Positions 9,408 to 48,072 of a stretch of 64,000 nt of DNA are shown piece after piece. Numbering within the stretch: the first letter of the stretch is position 1; each line of letters starts with the position of its first letter. Under the pieces are notes generated by a model. The model saw only the letters and a program-made list of their open reading frames with translations. It did not search any database and was not told where the DNA came from. Position numbers and translations under genes: made by a program. Source of the DNA: Chloroflexota bacterium. Lineage in GTDB: Bacteria > Chloroflexota > Anaerolineae > UBA4142. The DNA is taken from positions 7,982-71,981 of the forward strand of contig JACRPR010000072.1 of the NCBI GenBank assembly GCA_016223105.1. Direction: 5' to 3'.

Positions 9408-9498
9408 GGATTCGACCCCTTCGGCTTCGTTCAGGGCAATTGGCTTCAGCGCGCGGAGCGGTTTGTCCGGCCGAGCCACCGCGTAAACGCTCGACTCC
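9408..9498 (+). repeat. MITE-like element, family M, long form
   Basis: GGATTCGACCCCTTCGGCTTCGTTCAGGGCAATTGGCTTCAGCG...CCGCGTAAACGCTCGACTCC. Abuts the stop codon of gene 9500..10186. Confidence 0.8.
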
Positions 9499-9499
9499 A

Positions 9500-10186
9500 T
9501 TAGCGGATCACCAATTCGATCAGAATCGTTCCGGCAGTTCCAACGAACGTCAACACCGCGCCGAGCGCGAGCGGCGCGTAACGTAAACAGCCGCGCATCA
9601 CCTCGACTACCGTGAACGAGACCAAGCCGAACGAAAGCAGGACGACCATTCCCAACAAGCCGAGTGTTTTGCCGCGCAATTTTTCCGCGTCGTCGAATTG
9701 CGGTTCCGGGTTTAGATCTTTTTCGCGCGCGGCGTCCGCCCACATTTCGCCCAACTGTCTCTGCAGAGCGTACGTGCCATCGCGATTCAAAAAGCGATTC
9801 GGAAATAAATGTTGATTCGCGATCGCGAGATCGTGCGCTTCGAGCCGTTGTTGTTCGATCACGTTCGCGTCTTCGCCTTTGCCGGCTTGATCTTTTACCA
9901 TCATTTCGCCGAGTTGATCGTGGCGCAAGTACGCGGTGAACGCGCCGTAATTTTCGTACGCGTTCACAAAATTGAGCGCGCGCGTTTCTTCGACGTTCGT
10001 CATCGCGCGCAAGCCCGCGAAATCCGCGTCGCCCGCGGCATCCGCCGCGACCGACGCGCGCCACACCACGACCGCGCCGATCACAGTAACGAGCGCCATC
10101 AAAATCGCGATGACGGTTTGAAAACGATCATCGTTTTTTTCGACCGCGTTATTTTCGACGGCGGCAAAACTTTCGGGATTTTCCAT
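9500..10186 (-). CDS. Membrane protein (TM, ~170-aa helical region, 2 TM) with the same architecture as the N-terminal module of 7541..9208
   Basis: ATG 10186 with GGAGG RBS; the upstream extension to 10303 is repeat-encoded. Bracketed by two family M copies. Confidence 0.5.
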   Translation of the reverse strand: MENPESFAAVENNAVEKNDDRFQTVIAILMALVTVIGAVVVWRASVAADAAGDADFAGLRAMTNVEETRALNFVNAYENYGAFTAYLRHDQLGEMMVKDQAGKGEDANVIEQQRLEAHDLAIANQHLFPNRFLNRDGTYALQRQLGEMWADAAREKDLNPEPQFDDAEKLRGKTLGLLGMVVLLSFGLVSFTVVEVMRGCLRYAPLALGAVLTFVGTAGTILIELVIR

Positions 10187-10218
10187 TGCGCCTCCAAAAG
10201 GAATCGAACGACGTGACC

Positions 10219-10277
10219 GGACTCGACGCTTTAGCGGGTTGCTCGTCAAGCGAGTCACCGCGTAAACGCTCGACTCC
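10219..10277 (+). repeat. MITE-like element, family M, short form
   Basis: GGACTCGACGCTTTAGCGGGTTGCTCGTCAAGCGAGTCACCGCGTAAACGCTCGACTCC. Confidence 0.8.
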
Positions 10278-10365
10278 ATCATTTGTTCCTCATCTACGAT
10301 CAAGAATCGTCTTCAGGTAGGAATCGAATGTAGCATAGCGGAGTTGGGGTTGTCAAGGTGGGAAA

Positions 10366-10402
10366 CAAAAACCCGAAAGGTTTTCGAAAACCTTTCGGGT
10401 TT
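10366..10402 (-). terminator. Family P-like palindrome with U-tract, terminator of the FKBP gene
   Basis: AAACCCGAAAGGTTTTCGAAAACCTTTCGGGTTT, followed on the minus strand by TTTTGTTT. Lies 8 nt after the stop at 10410. Confidence 0.7.
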
Positions 10403-10409
10403 ATCGCTT

Positions 10410-10802
10410 TCATTTCACATCCAACAACTCGACTTCGAACACGAGCGTCGCGTTTGGTGGAATCACACCGCCCGCGCCGCGCGCGCCGTAACCCAGTTCC
10501 GGCGGAATCGTCAATTTGCGTTTGCCGCCGACTTTCATTCCGGCGACGCCTTGATCCCAGCCCTTGATCACTTGCCCCGCGCCCAGCACAAACGTGAATG
10601 GTTCTTTGCGATCATACGATGCATCGAATTGTTTGCCATCGGTCAATGTGCCGCGATAATGGACCGTAACGCGATTACCGACTTTCGCTTCCGCGCCGGT
10701 GCCGATTTGCAAATCCTGGATCACCAATTGATTTGGATTCGCCGGCGCGGAACACGCGACAACCGTGACCAGGATCGCGATCAATCCGAAGAATTTTTTC
10801 AT
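10410..10802 (-). CDS. FKBP-type peptidyl-prolyl cis-trans isomerase, lipoprotein
   Basis: [17 protein letters not shown] signal/lipobox. Complete FKBP domain ending ...[27 protein letters not shown]. Confidence 0.88.
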
Positions 10803-10836
10803 CGCGTTATCCAACCTCTAACAATTCGACTTCGAA

Positions 10837-11088
10837 CTAACCCAGCTCCGGCGGAATCGTCAGTTTGCGTTTGCCGCCGACCTTCATCCCGGCGACGCCT
10901 TGATCCCAGCCCTGGATCACTTGCCCCGCGCCAAGCGCAAACGCAAACGGTTGCATGCGATCGTACGACGCATCGAATTGTTTGCCGTTCGTCAACGTGC
11001 CGCGATAATGCACGGTGACGCGTTTGCCCGCGACCGCTTCCGCACCCGCGCCGATTTGCAAATCTTCAATTATAAGTTGGTTCGACAA
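10837..11088 (-). pseudogene. Truncated tandem FKBP duplicate (a 48-nt internal deletion creates a TAG)
   Basis: TTG start at 11088 after AAGGAG. Aligns with 10410..10802 up to PPELG, then TAG at 10837-10839. The in-frame remnant FEVELLEVG* follows. Confidence 0.65.
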
Positions 11089-11104
11089 TTTGATCTCCTT
11101 GGAA

Positions 11105-11180
11105 TTTAGATGTTGGAAATTGGAGGTTAGAAGTTGGAACGCGCAATCCAACTTCCAACTTCTAACATCCAACATCCAAT
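11105..11180. repeat. Word-repeat hairpin (GGAAGTT/GGATGTT words) downstream of metK
   Basis: GATGTTGGAAATTGGAGGTTAGAAGTTGGA-acgcgca-ATCCAACTTCCAACTTCTAACATCCAACATC. Confidence 0.75.
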
Positions 11181-11181
11181 T

Positions 11182-12387: not shown

Positions 12388-12406
12388 TTATTTGCTCCTC
12401 ATTTTT

Positions 12407-12467
12407 GATTTCAAATTTCAAATTTCAGATTGATGAATCTGAAATCTGCAATCTGAAATCTGAAATT
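12407..12467. repeat. Word-repeat hairpin (GATTTCA/AATCTGA words) between ahcY and metK
   Basis: GATTTCAAATTTCAAATTTCAGATT-gatga-ATCTGAAATCTGCAATCTGAAATCTGAAAT. Confidence 0.8.
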
Positions 12468-12468
12468 C

Positions 12469-13764
<1,296 letters not shown>

Positions 13765-13794
13765 TTAGAAGTTGGATGTTGGAAGTTAGATGTT

Positions 13795-13879
13795 GGATTC
13801 GACCCCTTCGGCTTCGCTCAGGGCAATTGGCTTTAGCGGGTTGTTCGCTCGCGGAAAAACCGCGTAAACGCTCGACTCC
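13795..13879 (+). repeat. MITE-like element, family M, long form
   Basis: GGATTCGACCCCTTCGGCTTCGCTCAGGGCAATTGGCTTTAGCGGGTTGTTCGCTCGCGGAAAAACCGCGTAAACGCTCGACTCC. Confidence 0.85.
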
Positions 13880-14530: not shown

Positions 14531-14564
14531 AGACCCGAAGGGTTTTCGAAAACCCTTCGAGTCT
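14531..14564. repeat. Palindrome family P copy, intercistronic
   Basis: AGACCCGAAGGGTTTTCGAAAACCCTTCGAGTCT, between the kinase stop (14568) and the V4R start (14506). Confidence 0.85.
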
Positions 14565-14567
14565 GGT

Positions 14568-16255: not shown

Positions 16256-17293
16256 TCACTTGACTGCCCGCATCACCCGCGCTAGATTTTCTACAAACGG
16301 CGGACGCACGACGCCGCGTTCCGTTACGAGCGCGGTGATGTACTTGTGCGGCGTTACATCGAACGCGGGATTGCCGACGCGCACACCATCGGGCGCGATC
16401 GGCACGCCTTCGATGTGCGTTACTTCGCGCGCGTCGCGTTCTTCGATTTCGATCAGATCACCGTGCGCCAAATTCAGATCAATCGTCGAAGTTGGCATCA
16501 CCGCGTAAAATGGAATCCCATTTTCATGCGCGACGACCGCGACCTTGTACGTGCCGATCTTGTTCGCGACATCGCCGTTCGCCGCGACGCGATCCGATCC
16601 GACGAAACATTTTTTGACGACGCCTTTGCGAAGATAATGCCCCGCGGCATTGTCCGCGATCAACGTCATCGGCACGCCGTATTGCATCAATTCCCACGCG
16701 GTCAACCGCGCGCCTTGTAAACGCGGACGCGTTTCATCCACGAGGACGTGCACGCGCTTGCCTTGCCGATGCGCTTGAATGATGCAACCGAGCGCAGTGC
16801 CAACGTCAACGGTCGCGAGTGGTCCCGTGTTGCAGTGATGCAAAATCGTATCGCCGTCTTCGATCAATGCCGCGCCGTTCTGCGCCATCGCGGTATTGAT
16901 CGCGACATCTTCTTCCGCGATCGTTTGCGCGAGCGCGACGACGAAATCGCGCAAGCCGTGCGCGTCGAGATTCTGCGCGCGCGTCGCGTTCATCACGCGA
17001 TCCAACGCCCACATCAAATTGACCGCGGTCGGACGCGTGGCGCGCAAAATTTTTTCGGCGGCATCGAGATCGCGCAAAAATTCTTCGCGCGAAGTTGCGC
17101 GCGCTTCAATCGCCGCGAGCGCGAGACCGAACGCCGCCGCCGCGCCAATCGCCGGCGCGCCGCGAATCGTCATATCCTTGATCGCGTGTGCGACCGCGCG
17201 ATAATCGCGGCACTCGACGATTTCAAATTGGCGCGGCAGTTTGCGCTGGTCAATCATCTTGACGACATCACCGATCATTTCAATCGTTCGCAT
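16256..17293 (-). CDS. mtnA: S-methyl-5-thioribose-1-phosphate isomerase
   Basis: ATG 17293 (GGAGAG RBS). eIF-2B alpha/beta/delta family: [23 protein letters not shown] ... [19 protein letters not shown]. Confidence 0.85.
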
Positions 17294-17307
17294 CAATCTC
17301 TCCGAGC

Positions 17308-17535
17308 AAAAAAAAATCTCTCCGCGCAAGAGAGAGAACGTCAAAACACGCGTCTCATCTCCCAAGCCAAAGCACAGCGGCTTGCCGGAATTGGCACCGA
17401 TTTAGTTGGATAGTTGATTAGTTGGATAGTTGGTTAGTTGAATGTCAACTATCCAACTATGAAACTATATAACTATTGCACTACCGGTTGCCGAGGTTTC
17501 ACAGGGCCGATCCCTCCACCTCTCTGGATGAGTGT
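17308..17535 (-). promoter_or_regulatory. SAM-I (S-box) riboswitch with an intrinsic terminator, 5' of mtnA
   Basis: Minus-strand RNA: CUCAUCCAGAGAGGUGGAGGGAUCGGCCCUGUGAAACCUCGGCAACC-[~95-nt P3]-GGUGCCAAUUCCGGCAAGC...GGGAGAUGAG. This is followed by UCUCUC-uugcgcg-GAGAGA and U9. Confidence 0.88.
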
Positions 17536-17559: not shown

Positions 17560-17588
17560 TTTATAGCACAAGCGAAATGTTTTGTCAA
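17560..17588 (-). promoter_or_regulatory. Sigma-70-like promoter for the riboswitch-mtnA unit
   Basis: Minus strand TTGACA (17583-17588), 17-nt spacer, TATAAA (17560-17565). Confidence 0.5.
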
Positions 17589-19903
17589 TTTGAAATTTGA
17601 ATCGTGGTGAGCGTGATGTGATCGTCATTGTTCACCGGCAAACGCGCGCCGCCATTCGCGCGATACACGCCGACAAAAATTTTATACGCGCCGGGTGAAA
17701 GATCGCGCGGGATAATCAACGCGTACTCGTCCGCGACAATTTCGCCCGCGTCCCACAATGAAGTTGGATACGCGCCGCTCTGCGGCTGATCATCTTTTTG
17801 CGCGATGATTTTGCCGGTCGCGTCAACGAGATGCATGAACACGGTGTACTCTTGATCTATCGCGCCGCGCGCTTGCCAAAATAATTTCACGCGCAATGAT
17901 TCGCCATCGCGCGCGACCGAATGTCCGACAAGCGCGAGTTGATCCGCGAATTCATAGCGCGCCGGATTTTCGATTTGCACACGCGCTTGCCCAGCGATTT
18001 TGAAGCGCGCGAGCGTCGGCGTGATCGCGTTCCTGCGCGGATCGCGCGCGACCAGGTTTTCGAGCGGCACGCGGCGATAGAGCGTTACGTCAATCCGTCC
18101 GCCGCCCGGTCCGCGCGCGTCGCGCGATAACGGCACGCGATATTCGTCCGCGATAATTTCGCCGACCTGCCACAATCGCGTCGGATACAAACCGCGACCG
18201 GGGAACGCATCCCAGCGTCCGATCACATCACCACGCGCGTCGAGCAAGCGAAGCCCCACCGAAAAATCTTCCGCGATGCGTTCACGCGCGCGCCAATAAA
18301 TCGTGATCGGCAATTCGCCACCGGGCGCAACCGATTTTTGCGCGAGCGCGTAACCGATCAATTCGATCTGATCGTCGAAAATAATTTGCGTCGGATTTGG
18401 CACGCGCGCTTCATCGGAAAAACGCGCGGGCAAAGTGTACGTGGGCGCGATGAGCGTGAAAGGGGCGAGCGCGGCAAAAGTTAAAAGTAAAAAGGTAAAA
18501 ATAAAAAGTAATCCGTAATGCGTGATGCGTAAAATCTGAAATCTGAAATGTGAAATCTGAAATCCGCTCAGCCCGTAGACAAACAAAACTGCCACCGCGC
18601 TGATTGCCGGAAAAATCAGACGACCTTGCGATGCCATCGTGAGCCACGTCCAACGCACCAGCGAGAGATTGATCAGAATGAACCACAGCGCGGGCAACGC
18701 GATCAAACCGGGCAACGCGCGGCGAAAAATTCCGATCACCAAACCAATCAACGCGATCAGCGTGAACGCATCGAGAAGTGTGTACACAATTTCCGGCGCG
18801 ATGATGTTGACGCCGCCGAAATTGCCCCAAAACGAAATGCGAAATCCTTGCAGTTCGCCGAGCAAACTCGCGAACGAAACCGGCGTCGCGCGCCCACCAG
18901 CAATCGCGACCCAAACATTGAACGCTAGCGGATCGTCGTACAGCATCCAGTTGCGCGCGTACCACCAGAACGCGAGCGCGACGACGAGCGCGGCGCAAAC
19001 AAAACTGCCCTTGATAATTTCGAGTGGGTGAGCGGGTGAGTGGGTGAGTGGGAGAATTGCTCCCCCTCTCCCTCTCTTCCCCTCTCCCACTCGGTTTCGC
19101 CATAATAGATACGCGAACACAATCGCCGCGACACCGAGCAAACCCAGGTTACTAATTTTCGTGAGCGCGCCGAGACCCAGCACGATCCCAAGAATGACAA
19201 ACCGTTGCATCGTCGCACCACGCGTAACAAGTCGCGTCATCAGCAACAGCGCGAGCGTCGCGAGCATCGTCGCGAGGTTGTCATTGTTCACCGACGCGCT
19301 GATGAAAATAAACATCGGATTGCACGCGACCAGCGCGGCGGCGAATGCGGGAATGTCATTGCGAGCGAAGCGAAGCAATCCCCACCGCGCGGTGGAGATT
19401 GCTTCGTCGCCAAGGTCGCTCCTCGCAATGACAATTTCGCGCGCGAGCGCGTAGGTCAGCGCGACGGTGAGCGCGGAAAATATAATCGAGAGGAACCGGA
19501 TGAGGTGAACCGCGAGCGCGGTATTATGCCACGGAAAACTTTCCGCGTTCGTGTGGACGATCAAATTCTTGTTGCCAAAAACCAGGGGGATGCCAATTTT
19601 CGCATGCGGGTTGAGCCACACGCGCTCCGGCAAATCGCGCGCGTCAATCCAAAATGTCGCGAGCGCGCTGATCGCATAATACAGCGGTGGCTGTCCGCCC
19701 TCTTGCTCCCACAACGTTTTCACATTCGGGTCTTGGATCGGCAATCCATTCCCGGTCGCGAGATGTTGGATGAACGGATAATGCCAAATCTCATCGCCCG
19801 CTTCAAAAATCGGCGTGAGGATCGAGTACGTGATCGCAAGCGCGAGGAACGCGACCAGGATCAAAATCAGCGCGCGATTATTTGCCCACATAGATCGTTT
19901 CAA
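17585..19903 (-). CDS. GT-C fold membrane glycosyltransferase (GT39/ArnT/PMT-like), paralog 1, with two C-terminal beta-sandwich repeats
   Basis: 772 aa, more than 10 TM helices, first-loop EAGDEIWHYP acidic motif. The C-terminus carries two ~130-aa repeats (YWRA...DFSV / FWQA...EYTVFMHLVD...). Contains several in-frame repeat-derived segments. Confidence 0.7.
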   Translation of the reverse strand: MKRSMWANNRALILILVAFLALAITYSILTPIFEAGDEIWHYPFIQHLATGNGLPIQDPNVKTLWEQEGGQPPLYYAISALATFWIDARDLPERVWLNPHAKIGIPLVFGNKNLIVHTNAESFPWHNTALAVHLIRFLSIIFSALTVALTYALAREIVIARSDLGDEAISTARWGLLRFARNDIPAFAAALVACNPMFIFISASVNNDNLATMLATLALLLMTRLVTRGATMQRFVILGIVLGLGALTKISNLGLLGVAAIVFAYLLWRNRVGEGKRGRGGAILPLTHSPAHPLEIIKGSFVCAALVVALAFWWYARNWMLYDDPLAFNVWVAIAGGRATPVSFASLLGELQGFRISFWGNFGGVNIIAPEIVYTLLDAFTLIALIGLVIGIFRRALPGLIALPALWFILINLSLVRWTWLTMASQGRLIFPAISAVAVLFVYGLSGFQISHFRFQILRITHYGLLFIFTFLLLTFAALAPFTLIAPTYTLPARFSDEARVPNPTQIIFDDQIELIGYALAQKSVAPGGELPITIYWRARERIAEDFSVGLRLLDARGDVIGRWDAFPGRGLYPTRLWQVGEIIADEYRVPLSRDARGPGGGRIDVTLYRRVPLENLVARDPRRNAITPTLARFKIAGQARVQIENPARYEFADQLALVGHSVARDGESLRVKLFWQARGAIDQEYTVFMHLVDATGKIIAQKDDQPQSGAYPTSLWDAGEIVADEYALIIPRDLSPGAYKIFVGVYRANGGARLPVNNDDHITLTTIQISN
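18481..18565. repeat. Word-repeat segment (AAAAGTA, GATGCGT and AATCTGA words) inside GT-C paralog 1
   Basis: TTAAAAGTAAAAAGGTAAAAATAAAAAGTAATCCGTAATGCGTGATGCGTAAAATCTGAAATCTGAAATGTGAAATCTGAAATCC, translated as FQISHFRFQILRITHYGLLFIFTFLLLT. Confidence 0.7.
19022..19093. repeat. Word-repeat hairpin (GGGTGAG / CCCTCTC) inside GT-C paralog 1
   Basis: GAGTGGGTGAGCGGGTGAGTGGGTGAGTGGGAGAATTGCTCCCCCTCTCCCTCTCTTCCCCTCTCCCACTC, translated as GEGKRGRGGAILPLTHSPAHPL. Confidence 0.7.
19355..19433. repeat. Family C 79-bp hairpin element inside GT-C paralog 1
   Basis: GTCATTGCGAGCGAAGCGAAGCAATCCCCACCGCGCGGTGGAGATTGCTTCGTCGCCAAGGTCGCTCCTCGCAATGAC, translated as ...SDLGDEAISTARWGLLRFARNDI. Confidence 0.85.
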
Positions 19904-21674
19904 TTGTCACCGCGTCGCCAAACGACTGACCATTGGCGTCAACCATGGGCAAACGTTCCCCCGTTGCGCGATCATAAAAACCAACGCGGATCGCATAATT
20001 CCCCGGCGGCGTGTTCGCGTCAATCGGCAACACCGCGCCGTGCTTCCATTGGTCGCTCGCGCGCAAGCTACGCGTCGCCATTTGCGCGTCCGCGCCGGCG
20101 ATTTGATTACCGGCGGCATCAACGAGGTGGACAAAAATCGTATAGTCCCGATCGGTGTTTTCCAAACTCTGGAGATAAAAAATCGCCGCGAGATATTCGC
20201 CGGGTTGCACGCGCGCGCTTGCCAGATCGAAACGCGCCAATTGAATCGCGGCATTGAAATTTACCGGGAGCGGCGGCGCGGCGCGCGCATCGAACGTCGG
20301 CGCGACCGGGATTTCAATCGGACGCTCTTGTTCGTCGAGATAAATAATTAGCGGATGCGGATGCGCGCGCAAATCGGGACTGACATGCGATTGCACACTT
20401 CCGACCGCGATCGTTTTGCCGTACCGCCCCAGAAACATTCCTTCGAGACTGTCAATGTACGTGTTGATGAAATAGATGTACGTGCCGGGCGGGAACGTGG
20501 GATGGCGTTGGCGAATCGCGCGAAAGACCGCGCGCTCGTCGAGCGACATGGACGCGTATAGCGCGGCGGCTTCGTCAATTCGCAATCCATTGCCGATCAA
20601 AAAAAGCGCGACGAGCAACCCGATGCTCCACACCGCAACGCGCCGCCGATTTTGCGCGAGCCACACCACGAGCATCGCCGCGGCAATTGCGAACGCGAGC
20701 GCGGGCGCATACAAATAGCGCGATTGCGGTTTGGGAAACGGGATCACCGGGAGCAAGGTAACCAACGCGACCAATCCCAGGAATACCAGCGCGCGATTTT
20801 TTTTGCGCCACGCGCTCCATCCCGCGAACGCATAAATGCCGAGCGCGAGAATTTGATCCGCGACCGGGTTAATGCTCCACGGCACAACCAGTTCCGTCAA
20901 GTATTTGATCAAATTGGGCGCGAGGTGACTGCCCGCGCTATAACCGACCTGGCGCGTGCTAACGCCGTAGGTAATCGAGCGCAAGTCGAACGCGATCAAC
21001 GTCAGCCCGGCGAAACCGAACAGCGCGTAGCGCCGGAATAAATCGAACACGCGGAACGGTCGGCGCAACAAAATGATCTCGATGCCAAGCAGAACTGCCG
21101 GCAGAACAATGCTCGTCTCTTTGGTCATCAACGCAAGACAATAAAACAACAGGGCGCGCAAATAATCGCGCGCGCGCGCGCGTTCGAGATACGCGATCCA
21201 AAACCAGGTCGCGGCGAGCGCGAACGCGGTCGCCTCGTTTTGCGGCTCGATGGGCCACATCGCGACCCAACTGATTGTCGGCAGAGTCACAAAAAATAAC
21301 GCGGACAATAACGCGAGCCACGGATGGTGGGACAGCCGGCGCACAAGCGCGAACAACAACAAGCCGTTCAGCAAATGCAGTAACATCCAAACAACGTGAA
21401 AGCCAAACGGATCCGCGCCGAACAAGGTGTATTCGGCTAACCACATCACTCCAAACATCGGACGATACCAAATGAATTGGACGCGCGGATCGAAAAAGAA
21501 ACGCAGATACTCGCCGAGATCGAGTTTCACCAACAGCGTGATGAACGACCAATCGTCCCACAAAAAACCAATCCGCAAGCCGGGCGCGAAAAAAATCGCG
21601 ACGACCGCGCTGATCAGTAAAACGCATAACGCGGTGGAAAATTTTTCAATGGCTTTGATTTTTGAACTGGTCAT
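19878..21674 (-). CDS. GT-C fold membrane glycosyltransferase (PMT/TMTC-like), paralog 2
   Basis: ATG 21674. First-loop GFLWDDWSF motif. Polytopic N-terminal domain plus a C-terminal domain (FYLQSLENTDRDYTIFVHLVDAAGNQIAGAD...). Confidence 0.65.
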   Translation of the reverse strand: MTSSKIKAIEKFSTALCVLLISAVVAIFFAPGLRIGFLWDDWSFITLLVKLDLGEYLRFFFDPRVQFIWYRPMFGVMWLAEYTLFGADPFGFHVVWMLLHLLNGLLLFALVRRLSHHPWLALLSALFFVTLPTISWVAMWPIEPQNEATAFALAATWFWIAYLERARARDYLRALLFYCLALMTKETSIVLPAVLLGIEIILLRRPFRVFDLFRRYALFGFAGLTLIAFDLRSITYGVSTRQVGYSAGSHLAPNLIKYLTELVVPWSINPVADQILALGIYAFAGWSAWRKKNRALVFLGLVALVTLLPVIPFPKPQSRYLYAPALAFAIAAAMLVVWLAQNRRRVAVWSIGLLVALFLIGNGLRIDEAAALYASMSLDERAVFRAIRQRHPTFPPGTYIYFINTYIDSLEGMFLGRYGKTIAVGSVQSHVSPDLRAHPHPLIIYLDEQERPIEIPVAPTFDARAAPPLPVNFNAAIQLARFDLASARVQPGEYLAAIFYLQSLENTDRDYTIFVHLVDAAGNQIAGADAQMATRSLRASDQWKHGAVLPIDANTPPGNYAIRVGFYDRATGERLPMVDANGQSFGDAVTIETIYVGK

Positions 21675-21690
21675 CTGCGCTAGTCCAATT

Positions 21691-23589
21691 TTACGGTTGG
21701 CATTGACACACATTATTCGCGCTGGTCGCGCAATGGCTGGTCACGCGAATGGATTTGAGCGCGATTTCGGCGGGCGCGTCGGTCGGATCGAAACGGAGTT
21801 GTTCGATCTGATCGCCGAAAAATAATTTGCCGCTCGCGCCAAGGTTGACGCGATAGGTGCGCCATTCGCCGTCGGCTTGAATCGGGAACGCCTCGCTAAT
21901 GCCCGGGAAAAAATCGGCTTGATCGGTTGCGCGCCAAAATAGTTCGCCGCGCGTCGTCGGCGTCGCGGCGCGCGCGCGGAGCGTGATCTCGACAGCGGCA
22001 ATCGCAAGCGCGGGCATGTTGATTGGCGGACTCGCCAGGATCGGATCGTTGCCGAGGACGCGCAGTCCACGCGCGTCGTCGGGCGCGTCCATCTCGGCGA
22101 GATCGTTCCAGGTCGCCCATTCGCGCAAGCCCTGCGCGACCGTCCACTCGATTGCCGGGCGCGCGTGTCCCAAGCATTGCGCGCGCGCGCTCAACGCGTC
22201 GCGCACAGCGGGATGTTCGATCAAACGTCGCCGCGCGTACTCGATGAAAAAGATATTCGCGCGCGGCGCATCCACAATCGGAAATTTTGCGCCGAGCGTC
22301 GCATCCACCGCGCTCCGGTGGGAAATACCGAGCGCCATTTTCAAATTCAAATCGTCGAGAATCACCGGCACACCCCGCGCCATTGTGGGAATGCCGATAA
22401 AATAAAAACGCGTGCCCGGCGGAATTTGCGGAAATAGCCGCTCCATTTCTTGAACCACGCTTCCCGCGATATTTCCCGCCGTCGCCCAATTCTCGACGCG
22501 CCCGTTCAAGCCCATCGCGTACGCGCCGATGAAAAACACGGACAGCGCAAAACGCGCGACGCGCGCCCCCCGCATCGTTTGCGGAAACGGTTGCGCCACG
22601 ATTGCCGCGAGCGCGATCACAAATCCGGCGGAGGGTGTGTACGCGAGGCGCGGCGCGGGATACGCGACGGAGAGCGAAGGCATCAACGAAATGATCGTCC
22701 ACGCAATTCCCAACCACACAGTTTTGCGCCGACGATAAATCAACGCGAGGAGCGCGAACACGCCCAGCAAGGTCCAATACATCTCGACGCTGAGATCGGC
22801 AAAAAAGGGCTGGACGAATGTGATCGTATAATAATGCGCGAACAAGTTGATCACAATGTCGAGCGATTGCGTACTTTGATACAAGGATGGCGGCGCGAGA
22901 AAGGTGAAACGAATTAGGGCGTAACCGGCGAGCGCGCTCCACATCACGATTTGCGCGCGCGCGATGCGCCAGCGCAGGGTTGGAAAATGAAATAGCAGAT
23001 CATAAACGAGCAACACTGCCGGGAGCGCGAGCGTATTCTCTTTGGTCAAGTTCGCGCAGAGCATCGCGATTAACGCGACACCTAAATACAATCGTTTGGC
23101 GCGCGTGCGGAATAACCCAAAAAAAGTTGCGGACAGTAAATAGAAAAACGCGCTCAAGACATCGGTGCGATCCGAAATCCACGCGACCGATTCCGCGTGA
23201 TACGGATGCAACGCGAACAACGCGCCGGCGATAATGCCGATCCAGCGTTGGCGCGTTGTGAATCGCGTCAACACATACACGAGAAATGAACTGAGCGCGT
23301 GAAGCAGGACATTCGTCGCGTGATAGCCGAATGGCGCGCGCCCCCACATTGCGAAATCAATCAACCACAGCCATTGCACAAACGGACGCAGGAAAACAAT
23401 GCCATAGTACGTGAACAACCATTCCAGCAATCCGTGACCTTGCAGGTACGCGTCGGCATTGTCAATCAAATGCGTCATATACGAATTGTCGTCAATCAGA
23501 AAAAAACCGGACAAGCCGGGCGCGTACGCGGCAAAGCTAATGCAGATCAATCCGACGAAGATAAATCGTGAACTATGTTTCGCGATCAT
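21691..23589 (-). CDS. GT-C fold membrane glycosyltransferase (PMT/TMTC-like), paralog 3, with a divergent C-terminal domain
   Basis: ATG 23589. First-loop FFLIDDNSY motif. Polytopic. The C-terminal ~230 aa is unlike the other four paralogs. Confidence 0.6.
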   Translation of the reverse strand: MIAKHSSRFIFVGLICISFAAYAPGLSGFFLIDDNSYMTHLIDNADAYLQGHGLLEWLFTYYGIVFLRPFVQWLWLIDFAMWGRAPFGYHATNVLLHALSSFLVYVLTRFTTRQRWIGIIAGALFALHPYHAESVAWISDRTDVLSAFFYLLSATFFGLFRTRAKRLYLGVALIAMLCANLTKENTLALPAVLLVYDLLFHFPTLRWRIARAQIVMWSALAGYALIRFTFLAPPSLYQSTQSLDIVINLFAHYYTITFVQPFFADLSVEMYWTLLGVFALLALIYRRRKTVWLGIAWTIISLMPSLSVAYPAPRLAYTPSAGFVIALAAIVAQPFPQTMRGARVARFALSVFFIGAYAMGLNGRVENWATAGNIAGSVVQEMERLFPQIPPGTRFYFIGIPTMARGVPVILDDLNLKMALGISHRSAVDATLGAKFPIVDAPRANIFFIEYARRRLIEHPAVRDALSARAQCLGHARPAIEWTVAQGLREWATWNDLAEMDAPDDARGLRVLGNDPILASPPINMPALAIAAVEITLRARAATPTTRGELFWRATDQADFFPGISEAFPIQADGEWRTYRVNLGASGKLFFGDQIEQLRFDPTDAPAEIALKSIRVTSHCATSANNVCQCQP

Positions 23590-23602
23590 TGAGCGACTCG
23601 CA

Positions 23603-33719: not shown

Positions 33720-33779
33720 GGATTCGACGCTTCAGCGGGTTGTTTACCTGCGCGAGCAACCGCGTAAACGCTCGATTCC
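33720..33779 (+). repeat. MITE-like element, family M, short form
   Basis: GGATTCGACGCTTCAGCGGGTTGTTTACCTGCGCGAGCAACCGCGTAAACGCTCGATTCC. Confidence 0.85.
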
Positions 33780-34810: not shown

Positions 34811-34957
34811 TTGGAAATTGGAAATTAGAAATTGGAAGTTGGAAGACGTGATACGTGATGCGTGATAATCTCACGCATCACGCATCACGTTTTACGTTTT
34901 ACGTTTTACGTTTTACGTTTTACGTTTTACGTTTTACGCTTTACGCTTTACGTTTTA
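34811..34957 (-). repeat. Composite intercistronic element: (ACGTTTT)x10 tandem, a GATGCGT-word hairpin and TTGGAAA words
   Basis: Ten 7-nt units at 34887-34956. Hairpin ACGTGATACGTGATGCGTGA-taatc-TCACGCATCACGCATCACGT at 34846-34890. TTGGAAATTGGAAATTAGAAATTGGAAGTTGGAAG at 34811-34845. The substrate-binding-protein stop at 34955 lies within it. Confidence 0.85.
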
Positions 34958-36889
34958 CTTGATCGTCCAACTTTCCGCGTAGAACGGAATGTATTTGCCT
35001 TCGTTCACATCATAGTACGTGAACGGCGGATAGAGCGCATTGCTCAAGACCGCGCCGCTTGCCATGATGTTGTCCGTCGAATAGAGATTGTAATTCGCTT
35101 TCGGTGGTTGCACGTACGGGTACGAGGTCTTGAATTCTTTCGCGCGATTCGTCGCGCTCGGTTTGAGTTGACCGCTCAAGAGCTGGCGCGCGACCGGCGA
35201 ATTGTTCTGATTGTTTTTGTAAATCTTGTCGTCCACCGGCAACCAACCGGTCACCCGCGTCTTGGTGTCAATCGGATCGGTGAGGTAGCGTTCGAACATC
35301 ATCAAGACGGGCAAACTGTCGTTGAAGAACGATGCGACATCGGCGATGTAGGGTTTTTGTTTTTCCGCGTCAAACCCTTCCGCCATCTTGTCCACCCATT
35401 CCTTGATGTTGATCTCTTTGCCATCCGCGGTTTTTTGCTTGAACGGCAAGTTGATGCCGCGTTCGCCTTCGTTGCCTTCGGGATTGTTTTTCCAACCCGC
35501 GCTCACCACACCCGGGCGCAAGTTGTAATCGAAGGAAACGTACGGGTGAAAGTACGTAAAGCGGAAACCAATGTCCATCGAAATTTGATACTTGCCGGCT
35601 TTGTGGAGGTTGGTGCGTTCGGACGATTGGTACGGCTTGACCGTGATCTTGATGCCGAACTTGGTTAATTGTTGCGCGACGTTTTCGGACGACGCGAGGT
35701 ATTCGGTGAAATCGGCGGGCACGCTCAATTCAAATTCCAGTTTCTTGCCCTTGTCATCCACCCAAATGCCATCCGCGCCTTTTTTGAAATTGAGCCCAGT
35801 CAACAACGCTTCGGCTTTTTTCACATCCGCATCGTACGTGTTGAGTTTGGCAAGTTGCGCGGCGGAAAGCCAGGTCGGCACTGCGGCATCGGTAAAGCCG
35901 GCTTCGTACTTGACCGGGCGGCACGCATCGCCGAACGCAACCTTGCAATTTTCAACGCGATCAATCGCGTACGCGAATGCCTGGCGCACTTCTTTTTTGT
36001 TCAGCGGATAGACATCGTTGTTAAAGTACATCCCGGGTCCGTTCGTCCCAGGTCCGCCGAGCACGACCATGTGATTGCCGACCGCGCGAATCGCTTGCAA
36101 ATTCGCGGGGCTGTACGCGTTCGAGGAATAGTCCATATCGTTCGAGAGATACAATGGCATATCCTGAACGGTGTCGCCCCAGTACACGGTAACTTTGTCG
36201 AAATCAATCTTGTCCGCGTTGAACCCGGACGCGTTCTTGACCATCGTGAATTGCGCTTCGGTAACTTGTTTCGGATCAATGTTGAACGGACCGTAGACGA
36301 TCGCGCTCGGCGGGCGGAACGCGTTCATTTCGTCGAGCGTTTTGGTTACGTCCGCGCTTTTGCGGTCAGTGTTATTTTTGCGAAAACCGGCGGCGGCGTC
36401 CATCCATTTGCCGTACTGCGCGTACGGACGCGTGACGGTCGCGCGCACAATCGTGTCGAGAATCGCGGGACCGGGGGTTTTGATCGTGAACTCGACGGTC
36501 GCGTCATCTTTCGCGACGACATCGTTCAGCGCGTTCCAGGTCGAGCTGGTTTGCATCCACAAAATGTTGTACGTGCCGACGACATCTTTCGAGCTGAACG
36601 CGGAGCCGTCGCTCCATTTCATGCCCTTGCGAAGATTGATCGTGATCGTTGTAACGCCGGGCGCGGCGGGTTTAGTTGGCTCTGCCGGTTTCGTGGCAAC
36701 CGGCGCGGTCGTCGCCGCGGGCTTGGTGGGTTCCGGTGCTTTGGTTGCCGGCACCGCGGTCGGCGGCACCGCCGCCGTTGGTTTCGGCGCGTCGGTCGGT
36801 TTAGGCGCGGGCGTCGGCGTTGGCGCGGCGCACGCGACGAGCGCGACAAGCGCGATCAGCAATGTGAGCGCGAGCAAAATCTTTTTCAT
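34955..36889 (-). CDS. ABC transporter substrate-binding lipoprotein, family 5 (peptide/nickel/oligosaccharide type)
   Basis: Lipobox LVAC followed by a ~60-aa Pro/Thr/Ala tether. Family-5 body (INLRKGMKWSDGSAFSSKDVV...). Confidence 0.8.
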   Translation of the reverse strand: MKKILLALTLLIALVALVACAAPTPTPAPKPTDAPKPTAAVPPTAVPATKAPEPTKPAATTAPVATKPAEPTKPAAPGVTTITINLRKGMKWSDGSAFSSKDVVGTYNILWMQTSSTWNALNDVVAKDDATVEFTIKTPGPAILDTIVRATVTRPYAQYGKWMDAAAGFRKNNTDRKSADVTKTLDEMNAFRPPSAIVYGPFNIDPKQVTEAQFTMVKNASGFNADKIDFDKVTVYWGDTVQDMPLYLSNDMDYSSNAYSPANLQAIRAVGNHMVVLGGPGTNGPGMYFNNDVYPLNKKEVRQAFAYAIDRVENCKVAFGDACRPVKYEAGFTDAAVPTWLSAAQLAKLNTYDADVKKAEALLTGLNFKKGADGIWVDDKGKKLEFELSVPADFTEYLASSENVAQQLTKFGIKITVKPYQSSERTNLHKAGKYQISMDIGFRFTYFHPYVSFDYNLRPGVVSAGWKNNPEGNEGERGINLPFKQKTADGKEINIKEWVDKMAEGFDAEKQKPYIADVASFFNDSLPVLMMFERYLTDPIDTKTRVTGWLPVDDKIYKNNQNNSPVARQLLSGQLKPSATNRAKEFKTSYPYVQPPKANYNLYSTDNIMASGAVLSNALYPPFTYYDVNEGKYIPFYAESWTIK

Positions 36890-36905
36890 TTTCTTCTCCT
36901 CCGAA

Positions 36906-36960
36906 TTAGTTGGATAGTTGAATTGTTGAATTGTTGGATAGTTGGATAGTTGTTGGTTGA
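36906..36960 (+). repeat. One-armed word run (GGATAGTT/GAATTGTT words)
   Basis: TTAGTTGGATAGTTGAATTGTTGAATTGTTGGATAGTTGGATAGTTGTTGGTTGA. Confidence 0.7.
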
Positions 36961-38902: not shown

Positions 38903-39880
38903 TCATGTCGTACGCCAATTCCAACACGCGACGCGATGCCCGCTCGCAATCTCTTCCAGTTCCGGCTCATCGCGTTTGCACCGCGCGTCCGCGCGCGGAC
39001 AGCGCGGATGAAATTTACACCCGCTTGGCAATTCGATCAAGTCCGGCGGCGAACCTGGGATCGAAGTCAAATCTTCTTTCGCGCCTTGAAGCGTCGGCAC
39101 CGCGTTGATCAAGCCAATCGTGTACGGATGCGCGGGCGTTTTGAACGTCGTCGTAACATCTGCAAATTCGACGATTTTGCCGGCGTACACCGTCGCGACA
39201 CGATCGGCGAGTTCGGCGGCGAGCGACAAATCGTGCGAAATAAAAATCAACGAGAAATCGAGTTTGCCGCGCAATTCTTTCAGCACGTCCATAATATTGC
39301 GTTGCGTCAGAATGTCGAGCGCGGTCGTCGGCTCATCGAGAATCAAGAGTTGCGGTTCGAGCAGTAAGCCGAGCGCGATCAGCACGCGTTGCCGCATGCC
39401 GCCGGACAATTCGTGCGGAAACGATTTCCACACGCGTTCCGGATCGAGCCGGACGAGCGTGAGCAAATGTTCCGCGCGTTCTTTCAGCGCGCGCCCTTGC
39501 AAATAGTTATGCGCGCGCGCCGTGTCGCCGAATTGATCCGCGATGCGTAAAACCGGGTTGAGCGAGTTGAGCGCGGATTGAAACACCATCGCGCACTCTT
39601 TCCAACGAAACTCGCGGAGGGCTTTGCCCTTCAGCGTGAGCGCGTCAATCGTTTTATTGTCGCGATGATACAGCGCATTGCCCTGCGTGATCTTCGCGGT
39701 ACTCGGAAGCAATTGCACCACGCCCAAGCCGAGCGTCGTTTTGCCGGAACCGCTTTCGCCGATCAGCGCGAGCGCATCGCCACGCGCAACGTCGAAGGAC
39801 ACGTTGCGAATCGCGCGCACCTTGCCGCGCCGCGCGGCGTATTCGATGGATAAATTTTGAACAGATAAAGTTGGAGGCAT
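38903..39880 (-). CDS. ABC transporter ATP-binding protein (OppD/DppD-like)
   Basis: ATG 39880; the upstream extension is repeat-encoded. Walker A GESGSGKTT, signature LSGGMRQR, Walker B LILDEPTT. Confidence 0.85.
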   Translation of the reverse strand: MPPTLSVQNLSIEYAARRGKVRAIRNVSFDVARGDALALIGESGSGKTTLGLGVVQLLPSTAKITQGNALYHRDNKTIDALTLKGKALREFRWKECAMVFQSALNSLNPVLRIADQFGDTARAHNYLQGRALKERAEHLLTLVRLDPERVWKSFPHELSGGMRQRVLIALGLLLEPQLLILDEPTTALDILTQRNIMDVLKELRGKLDFSLIFISHDLSLAAELADRVATVYAGKIVEFADVTTTFKTPAHPYTIGLINAVPTLQGAKEDLTSIPGSPPDLIELPSGCKFHPRCPRADARCKRDEPELEEIASGHRVACWNWRTT

Positions 39881-39968
39881 AGTTGGATGGTTGGATAGTT
39901 GGGTAGTTGGGTAGTTGAATAGTTGCGTGGTTGGAAGAATTATCCAACTATCCAACTATTCAACTATC
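39880..39968. repeat. Word-repeat hairpin (GGATAGTT/GGGTAGTT words)
   Basis: ATAGTTGGATGGTTGGATAGTTGGGTAGTTGGGTAGTTGAATAGTTG ... TTATCCAACTATCCAACTATTCAACTATC. Confidence 0.75.
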
Positions 39969-42545: not shown

Positions 42546-42549
42546 TTTT

Positions 42550-42625
42550 TATGGGACGCGGATGAGCGCGGAGGAACGCGGATAAAAAAGAATAATCCGC
42601 GTTCGTCCGCGTTTGTCCGCGTCCA
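42550..42625. repeat. Family R ~76-bp hairpin element (copy 1 of 3)
   Basis: TATGGGACGCGGATGAGCGCGGAGGAACGCGGATAAAAAAGAATAATCCGCGTTCGTCCGCGTTTGTCCGCGTCCA. Confidence 0.85.
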
Positions 42626-44484: not shown

Positions 44485-44496
44485 AGTTCGAGTGGG

Positions 44497-46212: not shown

Positions 46213-46353
46213 TTTATCTCCTCCTGGAATCCAATCTGAACGATTGACCGAGCAAAGGTCGGGGTAGCCATCCTCCTTTCGATTTTTTATCCGCGAACCC
46301 TGGCACTTGCGTTCCCGCCAGGGCAAGTGTAACGCGAATCTCCGCGAATTTTT

Positions 46354-46430
46354 TATGGGACGTAGATGAACGCAGATGAACGCAGATTTTTTCTTCTTAT
46401 CCGCGTTCGTCCGCGTTTGTCCGCGTCCCA
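46354..46430. repeat. Family R hairpin element (copy 2 of 3)
   Basis: TATGGGACGTAGATGAACGCAGATGAACGCAGATTTTTTCTTCTTATCCGCGTTCGTCCGCGTTTGTCCGCGTCCCA. Confidence 0.85.
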
Positions 46431-46633
46431 GAACTACCGATTTCTTCCGCGAGCGGCGCGAGCAATTCCAACTTCCACGGTTCGACGCGCGGCGCGACGG
46501 AACACGCGGTACTCAAAATATATCCGCCGCCGATTTTGCCGATGTTAATTCGTTCGCCTGCTTCCGCGATCACTTGATCGCGCGTTTCATAATCGAGCAA
46601 CGCGACCGAGTTCAAGTTTCCTTTGATGAACAA
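46397..46633 (-). pseudogene. C-terminal remnant of a URO-D/MtaA-family (uroporphyrinogen-decarboxylase-like) gene
   Basis: Only ~80 codons (…AEAKRRIGAKLFIKGNLNSVALLDYETRDQVIAEAGERINIGKIGGGYILSTACSVAP…) survive. No N-terminal ~250 aa. Both ends run into repeat elements. Confidence 0.45.
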
Positions 46634-46670
46634 CTTTGCGCCGATGCGTCGTTTCGCTTCTGCGAGTAAA

Positions 46671-46726
46671 GGATGAGGGATGAAGGATGAAGGATGAAAA
46701 TTCAGGCGGAGCGTTCATCCTTCACC
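46671..46726. repeat. Word-repeat hairpin (GGATGAA words)
   Basis: GGATGAGGGATGAAGGATGAAGGATGAAAATTCAGGCGGAGCGTTCATCCTTCACC. Confidence 0.7.
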
Positions 46727-46729
46727 CGT

Positions 46730-47884
46730 TCAATACAGCAAGTATTTTTTTCTGATCAGATCAAACCGCGCGAGATCGGCGTCCCACGCGCGCGTGATAG
46801 TTTCGATGGAATGATTCGCGATCAACCCTTCGCGCACGCGCACATCGCCGGTGAGCAAATCGAAATGCGGTGGGCGACCTTCCCAACTCGTTTGCAAAAA
46901 CTCGAATTGATTTGGCGCGAGCGCGCGGCAAGTCGCGATAACATGCAAGCCGGTCGGAATCGCGCGGAACGCGTTGCGGTCGGTGATGTGCAATTGCGCG
47001 CCGAAACATTCGACGCCCGCGTGTTTGCTCGAACACGGCGTGAATGCAATCGGACGAAAAATCACGCCGGCGAGTTTCAACGCGTTGAGCGATTCCGCGA
47101 GCGCGTAGCCATCGAGAAACGGCGCGCCGACAATTTCAAACGGGAACGGCGTGCCGCGCCCTTCGGAAAGATTTGTGCCTTCGATGAAACACATTCCCGG
47201 GTACGGAATCGTCGTCGCGAAATTTGGAATGCCGGGCGATGGCGTAACCCAGGTCAAGCCGGTTTCATCGAACCACATTGCGCGATCCCAGTCGCGCATT
47301 TCAATCACGCGCAAATCCGCGTTGATGTTCAACTCGCGATTGTAGAATCGCGCGAGTTCGCCGAGCGTCATTCCGAATCGAATCGGGAGCGCGCCGTGCC
47401 CGATGAACGATTGCAAACCTGGGTCGAGCAGTGCGCCTTCGATGATTCTGCCGGTGATTGGATTCGGGCGATCCAAAACGATGAGCGGTTTTTGATTTTC
47501 CGCGCAGGATTCGAGCGCGAGTCCGAGTGTCGCGGTGTAGGTGTAAAAGCGCGCGCCGACATCTTGCAGATCGAAAAGCAAAATGTCCACATCCGTGAGC
47601 ATTGCGCGCGTCGGCTTGCGAATCTTACCATAGAGCGAATAGACCGGCAACCCCGTGCGCGCATCGCGCCCCGATTCGACTGCCGCGCCGTCCGCCGCAG
47701 ACGCGCTGAATCCGTGTTCGGGTCCGAATAGCGCGACGAGATGCACGCCCGCGTCGCGCAACGCGTCCACGTTCGAACGCAGATCGCGCGTAACGCCGGT
47801 TGGGTTCGTGATCAGACCGACGCGTTGGTTACAAAGCACATCCAATTTTTCGGTGAGTAAAATTTCGAGACCGGTTTGAATCAT
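46730..47884 (-). CDS. DUF1343 family protein (NamZ-like exo-beta-N-acetylmuramidase candidate)
   Basis: 384 aa. RVGLITNPTGV, LFGPEHGF and DLQDVGARFYTY motifs characteristic of DUF1343. Confidence 0.8.
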   Translation of the reverse strand: MIQTGLEILLTEKLDVLCNQRVGLITNPTGVTRDLRSNVDALRDAGVHLVALFGPEHGFSASAADGAAVESGRDARTGLPVYSLYGKIRKPTRAMLTDVDILLFDLQDVGARFYTYTATLGLALESCAENQKPLIVLDRPNPITGRIIEGALLDPGLQSFIGHGALPIRFGMTLGELARFYNRELNINADLRVIEMRDWDRAMWFDETGLTWVTPSPGIPNFATTIPYPGMCFIEGTNLSEGRGTPFPFEIVGAPFLDGYALAESLNALKLAGVIFRPIAFTPCSSKHAGVECFGAQLHITDRNAFRAIPTGLHVIATCRALAPNQFEFLQTSWEGRPPHFDLLTGDVRVREGLIANHSIETITRAWDADLARFDLIRKKYLLY

Positions 47885-47899
47885 AGTCGAATACTCTTT

Positions 47900-48072
47900 G
47901 GAGTCGAGCGTTTACGCGGTAACTTGACAAAGGAGATTGATCGAGAATTCGCGTCAACGAATCGCTTCGCGCAACGAATAAACGAATCGCGGGCGGTGTC
48001 AGCATATTCGTTTATTCGTTCAAAATTCCTAGACGCGGAATTTCCAATGCAACCCGCTAAAGCGTCGAATCC
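47900..48072 (-). repeat. Family M element in inverse orientation with a ~110-bp insert replacing the variable core
   Basis: Ends are GGAGTCGAGCGTTTACGCGGT... and ...CAACCCGCTAAAGCGTCGAATCC. The interior contains its own hairpin GAACGAATAAACGAAT/ATTCGTTTATTCGTTC. Confidence 0.7.

Follow-up and report, generated by a model that had tools for sequence, protein, structure and literature searches.

We analyzed a short repeated element, here denoted family M, in a 64,000-nt stretch of contig JACRPR010000072.1 from a Chloroflexota bacterium (hereafter the window, within which copy positions are numbered). The gene content of the window is ordinary and chromosomal, comprising nos genes, metK, ahcY, an S-adenosylmethionine (SAM) riboswitch with mtnA, rnhB, lgt, five tandem GT39/PMT_2 paralogues, anmK/murQ, namZ, pyruvate-dehydrogenase-type subunits, and ABC transporters for peptides and branched-chain amino acids. 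A first-pass annotation of the same DNA had described family M as resembling MITEs (miniature inverted-repeat transposable elements). The analyses reported here make it very probable that family M is instead a family of REPINs, that is, non-autonomous doublets of two inverted repetitive extragenic palindromic (REP) units that are linked to a REP-associated tyrosine transposase (RAYT).

Copies of family M in the window

The 3' end motif of the element, CGCGTAAACGCTCGAMTCC, searched with up to three mismatches, matched the window seven times where 0.24 matches were expected, and none of 100 shuffled sequences reached seven. All seven copies listed in the first-pass annotation, including the inverted last one, were recovered at exactly the positions given there (Table 1), and neither fuzzy arm searches nor an nhmmer profile of 70 family members identified an eighth in the window. 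Six copies are on the forward strand and one is on the reverse strand. Their common plan consists of GGAYTCGAC, an optional module, GCTTYAGCGGG, a spacer, CCGCGTAAACGC, and TCGAMTCC. Three copies are short (59-60 bp) and three are long (85-91 bp), as originally reported; the additional module of the long forms, 26-27 nt in length (CCCTTCGGCTT(T)CG(C/T)TCAGGGCAATTG, also written CCCTTCGGCTT(T)CGYTCAGGGCAATTG), is positioned exactly between GGAYTCGAC and GCTTYAGCGGG. The whole doublet measures no more than about 58-60 bp.

Six of the copies have a spacer of 19-25 nt, and the copy at 47900-48072 has one of 133 nt. For that copy, the earlier description of canonical ends and an interior hairpin holds, whereas its interior is longer than the roughly 110 bp first proposed and comprises a nested hairpin rather than gene-like cargo. 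The imperfect inverted repeats at the ends of the element are likewise real and extend further than first described, to about 21-22 nt per arm, with the arms pairing as a bulged rod. The core had been termed variable, and it is indeed less conserved than the arms; it is nevertheless not random and follows a loose consensus (GGGTTGYNYGTCCRA...ACC).

Six of the seven copies are intergenic, be it downstream of a stop, ahead of a start, or between two convergent genes. The seven copies are spaced 0.8-14 kb apart across housekeeping genes (metK, ahcY, lgt, and rnhB). Consistent with the first-pass annotation, which reported no transposase in the window, a Pfam scan of about 50 open reading frames (ORFs) identified no transposase or integrase, and a tblastn search of the window with a related Chloroflexi RAYT as query yielded no match.

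Table 1. Positions and layout of family M copies (probable REPINs) and associated features in the window, and arm sequences at RAYT loci of related genomes.
Feature	Positions	Strand	Length	Context or sequence
M/REPIN copy 1, long	9408-9498	+	91 bp	between stop of gene 9500-10186 (-) and start of TPR gene 7541-9277 (-)
Copy 1, 5' foot	9408-9416			
Copy 1, module	9417-9442			
Copy 1, 5' hairpin block	9443-9453			GCTTCAGCGCG, one mismatch
Copy 1, spacer	9454-9478			
Copy 1, 3' REP arm	9479-9498			
M/REPIN copy 2, short	10219-10277	+	59 bp	33 nt upstream of ATG of gene 9500-10186 (-)
M/REPIN copy 3, long	13795-13879	+	85 bp	between ahcY (12469-13734, -) and V4R-domain gene
M/REPIN copy 4, long	24837-24923	+	87 bp (29 codons)	in GT39/PMT_2-type membrane protein gene
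Copy 4 host gene	23603-25408	-	601 aa	GT39-family protein (P0001, locus tag HZC40_09885)
M/REPIN copy 5, short	28025-28084	+	60 bp	between convergent metallo-beta-lactamase-fold gene and lgt
M/REPIN copy 6, short	33720-33779	+	60 bp	between GH3 and GT2 genes
M/REPIN copy 7	47900-48072	-	173 bp	between anmK/murQ-like gene (48091-50151) and namZ (46730-47884)
Hairpin nested in copy 7 spacer	47973-48020	-		AACGAATAAACGAAT / ATTCGTTTATTCGTT; coordinates counted from sequence
Arms at L001, L146, L137				canonical window-type arms
Arms at L133				5' GGC-TTTA-GCC; 3' GCC-TGAA-GGC
3' arm at L138				GCC-CAAA-GGC
Arms at L145				5' AGC-TTTA-GCT; 3' GGC-TAAA-GCC
Arm at L143				GGC-TTYA-GCC

Distribution of family M outside the window

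One genome per species was searched with the M 3' arm. Matches were identified in another Chloroflexi metagenome-assembled genome (MAG; JACRMI01, 7 contigs) and in Anaerolineales UBA4826; three matches in other phyla were in coding DNA without a 5' arm and were dismissed as chance. Metagenomes were searched with a pattern in which only the two inner blocks were fixed, and this returned 120 loci. About two thirds of these are true members with the outer feet TGGAYTCGAC and TCGAMTCCA, which were recovered even though the search pattern did not include them. Most of the other loci match through one and the same 54-nt segment of a conserved gene, carried by soil-metagenome contigs, and the remaining few are scattered chance matches. 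Collectively, the window and the two scans yielded a census of 88 distinct copies, from genomes and metagenomes of Anaerolineae-like Chloroflexi.

Among the census copies, arm positions are each conserved at 85-100%, and past its first 3 bp the spacer is paired in no more than about 40-57% of copies. Long forms with the module recur in several genomes, with three in the window and others at loci L012, L052, L101, L106, and L112. The module weakly resembles the hairpin block as well as a sequence, CCCTTCGCTCCGCTGCTCAGAAACTTG, that is found just outside the 5' foot in short copies of L002, L018, and L046; in long forms the module-like sequence is inside the element, between foot and hairpin. No consistent hypervariability of the spacer was detected: comparison of the window with L012 revealed 8 differences at 16 spacer positions versus 2 at 53 positions in the 5' part, and spacers are nearly identical in other strain groups.

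The first-pass annotation had proposed a search for target-site duplications. An exact search for duplications of 4-8 bp was negative for all 88 copies, and duplications of 2 and of 3 bp were identified in three copies each, which is near chance expectation. Two suggestive cases, GATC at copy 4 and AATCAT at L007, have inconsistent offsets and were taken as chance. The bases that adjoin the element are conserved, with T at position -1 in 66 and A at position +1 in 72 of the 88 copies, and the preceding dinucleotide is CT in 34/88 and TT in 24/88 (together 66%). Copies are mostly intergenic, often just after stop codons, and are found in both 5' and 3' gene contexts. Between co-directional genes, 19 copies are antisense and 16 are sense, indicating no orientation bias relative to flanking genes. 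In-frame copies were identified in three membrane protein genes, namely the gene with window copy 4, its orthologue in L012, and a PMT_2-type gene in L003.

About 38% of the copies are centered in a larger inverted repeat, compared to 14% of random positions (flank-pairing z < -2); at z < -3 the corresponding values are 24% and 3.5%. The outer arms around M are either arrays of heptamer repeats or a recurrent sequence denoted 'XL' (TATAC..GCACGGTCAC..[M]..GTGACCGTG..GTATA). Among the window copies, copy 5 (folding z = -3.2, flank-pairing z = -4.7) is the center of such a repeat, whose outer arms occupy 27979-28006 and 28117-28144. Outer arms of the 'XL' type are absent from the window, except for decayed versions that flank copy 6 (...TTTACACGATCT[M]AAAAGCACAATCAATGA...). 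The converse arrangement is found in copy 7, where the hairpin nested inside M belongs to the heptamer-arm type, a common one in intergenic DNA of this genome.

Structure of the arms

The 5' arm reads (T)GGAYTCGA-CGCTTYAGCG-GG and the 3' arm reads CC-GCGTAAACGC-TCGAMTCC(A). Each comprises a conserved foot, GGAnTnnA, and a 10-nt mini-hairpin with a 3-bp stem and a tetraloop, which is CGC-TTYA-GCG in the 5' arm and its mirror unit, GCG-TAAA-CGC, in the 3' arm. The mini-hairpin of the 5' arm is evident from covariation of the base before GCTT with the base after AGC, since this closing pair is C:G in 80, A:T in 5, and T:G in 1 of the census copies. The outer stem, which is formed between the two arms, is nearly invariant; a Y:Y mismatch at its fourth position persists in 81% of the copies, and changes on one side alone mostly disrupt pairing.

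By pairing with each other, the two arms are predicted to be able to form one long hairpin with bulges, in either single-stranded DNA or RNA. Folding of the short forms as a single long hairpin gives z = -2.2 to -3.2 relative to shuffled sequences, whereas long forms fold no better than shuffles. When RNAfold folds the short forms into the long hairpin, the four bulged bases are exactly those that co-vary in the mini-hairpins. The doublet could adopt alternative folds, either a bulged rod or a junction of two mini-hairpins, and this junction could form without an unpaired linker because the bases bulged in one fold are paired in the other.

Association of family M with RAYT genes

A search for an autonomous, full-length element with the same termini, as proposed in the first-pass annotation, revealed that the M arms flank a transposase gene in related genomes. 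A tblastn search of the fetched loci with an E. coli RayT query matched locus L001 (E = 5e-14); an IS608 TnpA query yielded no match in the fetched loci. L001 belongs to the Chloroflexi MAG JACRMI01, and its 178-aa ORF (1608-2144) sits within an inverted pair of M copies at 1491-1567 (+) and 2158-2232 (-). The protein has the HUH motif (HYH, within NHYHILV) and the motif YIHHNPVKHGY, and it matched Pfam Y1_Tnp (PF01797) with 36.4 bits (cut-off 23) and the NCBIfam equivalog NF047646, 'REP-associated tyrosine transposase', with 110.5 bits (cut-off 80). Its sole match in the PDB was 4ER8, E. coli TnpA(REP) bound to REP (E = 1.3e-14). Across five Chloroflexi proteins, NF047646 scored 104-118 bits (cut-off 80) and the IS200 model at most 26.6 bits (cut-off 55).

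Homologs of the L001 protein numbered 386 in a large protein collection, and one, from a Thermoflexales genome, has been named RAYT by NCBI based on a hidden Markov model. Many are encoded on contigs of about 1 kb, likely because repeat arrays break assemblies, such that RAYT genes are left on very short metagenome contigs. We sampled L001 and the contigs of seven further homologs (61-81% identity) from different assemblies. In all eight loci, M-type arms directly adjoin the RAYT gene, often as tandem arrays. Three of the loci have canonical arms (Table 1). In the non-canonical arms, the foot GGAnTnnA is retained, as are the tetraloops, and the 3-bp stems differ, with both sides always changed. 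Stems across RAYT lineages comprise CGC/GCG, GGC/GCC, and AGC/GCT in the 5' arm and GCG/CGC, GCC/GGC, and GGC/GCC in the 3' arm. Only one of 121 loci fetched by the element pattern encoded a RAYT, which is consistent with many REPINs per RAYT and compatible with a single-copy, vertically inherited RAYT.

The RAYT loci seem to lie in defense-gene neighborhoods. Two lineages show this next to type I restriction-modification genes: in L138-L142, the RAYT gene and REPIN arrays are found between hsdR and hsdM of such a system, and in L145 they are next to hsdS/AbiEii and hsdR. In L133, the RAYT gene is next to a HEPN/DUF499 gene.

Presence and absence of copies in relatives

In L012, where the host protein is 82% identical, copy 4 occupies the same codon position; homologs of about 60% identity lack the copy and have no residues at this site. 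Copy 5 is absent from L012, where the spacer between the metallo-beta-lactamase-fold gene and lgt holds a different, 34-nt hairpin. The anmK-namZ junction, which holds copy 7 in the window (47885-48090), contains no M in either of two relatives: in L147 (9380-10000; 92% NamZ identity) it holds a 178-aa dCMP-deaminase-like gene and in L153 (about 9985-10000; 86% NamZ identity) it is a spacer of about 10 nt. Conversely, the relative at 92% identity has an M copy upstream of gntR that is missing from the window, and synteny breaks there. As judged from these sequence comparisons, M is gained and lost at the scale of closely related species (82-92% protein identity), and some copies persist. The lgt spacer and the gntR upstream region were considered as clean filled and empty sites and were rejected, as they differ by more than the element. 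The comparisons show absence of M in relatives, with insertion boundaries that are not base-exact.

Upstream of the GntR/UTRA regulator gene, all three genomes have a conserved promoter-like sequence (TTGACAC...TATAATC) with the palindrome AACCGGTCTATACCGGTT after it (window about 51000-51080, -; L147 6400-6466; L153 7020-7084). This palindrome is probably the regulator's own operator.

Family M as a probable REPIN family and alternative explanations

REPINs are defined as two conserved inverted REPs separated by a less conserved spacer that form hairpins and are found near RAYTs (PMC3116915), and rayt genes are flanked by inverted REPs (PMC2817692). Since M has inverted arms that flank RAYT genes, conserved ends, a weaker spacer, and hairpin potential, it fits these definitions. 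In common with the REPIN/RAYT systems of P. fluorescens SBW25 and E. coli (PMC3116915, PMC2817692, PMC3479197), M has two inverted arms of about 21 nt around a weaker spacer, forms hairpins, has dispersed and, in the loci examined, mostly extragenic copies without target-site duplication, and flanks, singly or in tandem arrays, a RAYT gene with HUH and Tyr motifs. Its arm hairpins are likewise kept by compensatory change and differ by RAYT lineage, and its two arms differ in form, as do the Y and Z2 units that surround rayt in E. coli. M differs from these systems in its host phylum, which is Chloroflexi (Anaerolineae-like) rather than Proteobacteria, in a GGAG/GGAY foot instead of the GTAG head, in a hairpin of 3 bp and a tetraloop within a doublet of about 58-60 bp, and in that the mini-hairpins pair exactly those bases that the long hairpin leaves bulged.

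Members of the GTAG-tagged REP superfamily are also short palindromes associated with tyrosine transposases; head-to-head dimers predominate and some are intragenic (PMC3733652), as in M. This superfamily is already known from Chloroflexi (GTAG-23 of Thermomicrobium roseum; PMC3733652). M, in contrast, has no GTAG, GYAG, or GTRG tag and its stems are below the 5-13 bp of the superfamily; this comparison is with the published description of the superfamily (PMC3733652). With IS200/IS605 elements, M shares the Y1_Tnp fold of the enzyme, hairpins at the ends in single-stranded DNA, and the lack of target duplication. However, the ends of IS200/IS605 elements are not inverted repeats of each other, unlike those of M, and the Chloroflexi proteins pass the RAYT model and fail the IS200 model. 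The in-frame copies in loops of membrane proteins (copy 4, its L012 orthologue, and the L003 copy), which leave the frame open and are retained, resemble Rickettsia palindromic elements; this likeness is in outcome only, as M is mostly intergenic and has a RAYT partner.

In single-stranded DNA, the E. coli RAYT binds an imperfect REP hairpin together with a 5' tetranucleotide, whose bases A3 and G4 specify the CT dinucleotide at which the enzyme cleaves (PMC3479197). By analogy with studies of TnpA(REP) in E. coli and of REPINs in Pseudomonas, the chromosome would encode, elsewhere in this genome, a RAYT (an HUH/Y1 enzyme) that binds the arm hairpin and foot of M in single-stranded DNA, cuts and rejoins at a nearby dinucleotide, and, at a low rate, excises or copies the doublet into other single-stranded sites. 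The expected flanks of this RAYT gene would be TGGAYTCGACGCTTYAGCGGG and CCGCGTAAACGCTCGAMTCCA. In this reading, the long forms are REPINs that gained extra sequence between foot and hairpin, and the 173-bp form is a REPIN that gained a nested hairpin in its spacer. The complement of the M 3' arm begins with GGAG, sharing A3 and G4 with E. coli, and CT is the most common dinucleotide before M. The GGAG foot and the preceding CT are suggestive of E. coli-like cleavage. Mobility of M is suggested by the presence and absence of copies and by homology to experimentally studied systems.

Alternatively, M could be a MITE in the classical sense, meaning a deletion derivative of a DDE-type insertion sequence whose terminal inverted repeats allow it to be mobilized in trans. 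The small size of M, its imperfect inverted repeats at the termini, its size variants, the large number of dispersed copies, and a window without a transposase would all be in line with such an origin, and M is indeed short, non-autonomous, and dispersed with conserved inverted ends. The term 'MITE-like' does not apply in its usual sense of terminal repeats, target-site duplications, and a DDE enzyme, given that 0/88 copies have a duplication of at least 4 bp and that the gene with M on both sides is an HUH/Y1 RAYT in 8/8 loci. Moreover, a DDE element sharing the M termini was found neither in the window nor in the fetched loci. We therefore regard a classical MITE as very improbable. The only DDE element encountered was a 1.4-kb, IS4-like insertion in an M copy of L103 (143-1533, with a 430-aa ORF). 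It was rejected as an autonomous partner of M since its 18-bp termini (CAATGGCATTAAGTTAAG) are unrelated and it has its own 10-bp duplication, which coincides exactly with the mini-hairpin CGCTTTAGCG. This mini-palindrome resembles the symmetric target favored by IS10-type elements. Still less credible, and close to negligible in our estimation, is that M represents integron-type attC sites or other recombinase sites, with copies 1 and 2 bracketing a gene cassette. The lengths of 57-173 bp, the inverted ends, which are imperfect and leave bases unpaired around a variable center, the shared orientation of six of the seven copies, and the single small gene between copies 1 and 2 would suit such sites, yet the core sites RYYYAAC/GTTRRRY are absent from the arms on either strand, no integrase or recombinase is encoded in the window, copies are 0.8-14 kb apart across housekeeping genes with one being intragenic, and the associated enzyme is a RAYT.

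A structured non-coding or cis-regulatory RNA, such as a terminator, an mRNA-stabilizing hairpin, or a protein-binding RNA whose recurrence reflects function, is also unlikely, although less so than a classical MITE. The first-pass annotation had regarded strong compensatory changes as a sign of functional RNA. Such changes, including G:T-type changes, do exist in the mini-hairpins, but they track the lineage of the neighboring RAYT and are in arms that this enzyme family recognizes as DNA hairpins, and for this reason they are no argument that M is a functional RNA in its own right. The better-than-shuffled folding of the short forms, the mostly intergenic location, often right after stop codons, and the enrichment in centers of larger inverted repeats would also suit an RNA, and REPs elsewhere act as RNA elements as well (PMC3733652). 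On the other hand, long forms fold no better than shuffles, the outer stem keeps its Y:Y mismatch and loses pairs through most single-sided changes, strand bias relative to transcription is absent with both 5' and 3' gene contexts represented, and some copies are inside coding sequence. Furthermore, an Rfam scan of the window returned the SAM riboswitch as its only above-threshold match, and no family overlapped any M copy at gathering thresholds or even at E <= 10. By analogy with REPs elsewhere, individual copies may have a secondary role in RNA as terminators or stabilizers.

Several observations weigh against the assignment of M to the REPINs. The link to RAYT rests on identical arms in related genomes, outside the 64 kb of this genome; the first RAYT lead came from the E. 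coli RayT query and was later confirmed by searches of Pfam, NCBIfam, and the PDB; and the lineage-level covariation is drawn from eight RAYT loci. The search patterns fixed most of both hairpin blocks, such that variation there is under-sampled in the census. At 3 bp, the arm hairpin is very short relative to the 5-13 bp of described REP families (PMC3733652), and the classical REP head GTAG/GT(A/G)G is absent, with a foot of GGAG (complement of the 3' arm) or GGAY (5' arm) in its place. Of the E. coli tetranucleotide, the M foot shares only A3 and G4, the two bases by which the CT site is specified (PMC3479197), and does so on one arm only. Finally, the evidence from relatives is that of presence and absence, with no perfectly clean filled and empty pair and with surrounding spacers that are rearranged as well. 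Nevertheless, the absence of GTAG, the 3-bp stem, the doublet of about 58-60 bp, and the long forms make M an atypical member of the same kind of element.

To our knowledge, REPIN-RAYT systems have been characterized almost only in Proteobacteria, and in the searchable literature we found no description of family M or of REPINs in Anaerolineae and nothing relevant on MITEs in Anaerolineae. M does not reveal a new kind of mechanism. It would, however, extend the range of REPIN-RAYT to a phylum that branches deeply and in which the REP unit is atypical and very small, which is useful for tests of RAYT substrate recognition, and hundreds of similar 'MITE-like' repeats in Anaerolineae-type MAGs could be annotated as RAYT-tied REPINs. 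The in-frame insertions also serve as a warning for gene callers, which may be confronted with repeat-derived segments and spurious ORFs. A broader and considerably more speculative possibility, which we raise only tentatively, is that M represents an uncharacterized, phylum-wide Chloroflexi REPIN-RAYT lineage with a minimal module of non-GTAG 'GGAG' foot and 3-bp/tetraloop hairpin, whose two dimorphic arms fold as a bulged rod or a linker-free four-way junction and which lands preferentially in apical loops of intergenic hairpins, and has in-frame copies kept as GT39 loop segments. If so, a RAYT that reads so small a hairpin would broaden the known recognition rules of the enzyme family, and the system would offer a compact setting in which to study REPIN-host coexistence outside of Proteobacteria.

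Individual copies and their surroundings

Copies 1 and 2 are direct repeats on either side of the gene at 9500-10186 (-), and copy 2 folds with a minimum free energy of -25.4 kcal/mol (z = -3.0). Just downstream of copy 2, an ORF without a Pfam match (10344-11018) contains two 245-nt direct repeats (10489-10733 and 10838-11082) that are 84% identical and 349 nt apart. An array of GTTGGAW heptamers (13754-13794) is immediately 5' of copy 3.

Copy 4 is an in-frame, antisense, stop-free insert in a loop of a GT39 protein, where it reads RESSVDAVDGSAKQPAKANCPERKPKGSSP. Its host gene is one of the five tandem PMT_2 paralogues at 17585-27216 (-). The homologs P0005 and P0008 carry other, unrelated inserts in the same loop, so this loop accepts insertions repeatedly.

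Other repeats and elements in the window

The SAM riboswitch (Rfam RF00162, 74.7 bits) is at 17352-17534 (-), directly upstream of an IF-2B/MtnA-family gene (16256-17365). With metK and ahcY nearby, this looks like a methionine-salvage/SAM regulon.

Intergenic tandem arrays of 7-8-nt units (GTTGGAA, ACGTTTT, AATCTGA, CAGTAAA, GTTGGATA, and GGATGAACGC) abound in the window, with examples at 2577-2649, 5636-5700, 11088-11152, 12422-12466, 13754-13794, 34867-34956, 36885-36955, 39866-39936, 42548-42624, 46352-46428, and 62287-62363. These arrays are often paired with their own reverse complement to form long hairpins, and in other genomes they are frequent outer arms of M. The unit GTTGGAT resembles the 5' end of M, (GT)TGGAT.

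A 35-nt perfect palindrome, AGACCCGAAGGGTTTTCGGAAACCCTTCGGGTCTG, is present in six copies (4755-4789, 10369-10403, 14531-14565, 52705-52739, 58575-58609, and 58723-58757). These palindromes look like terminators and constitute a separate repeat family.

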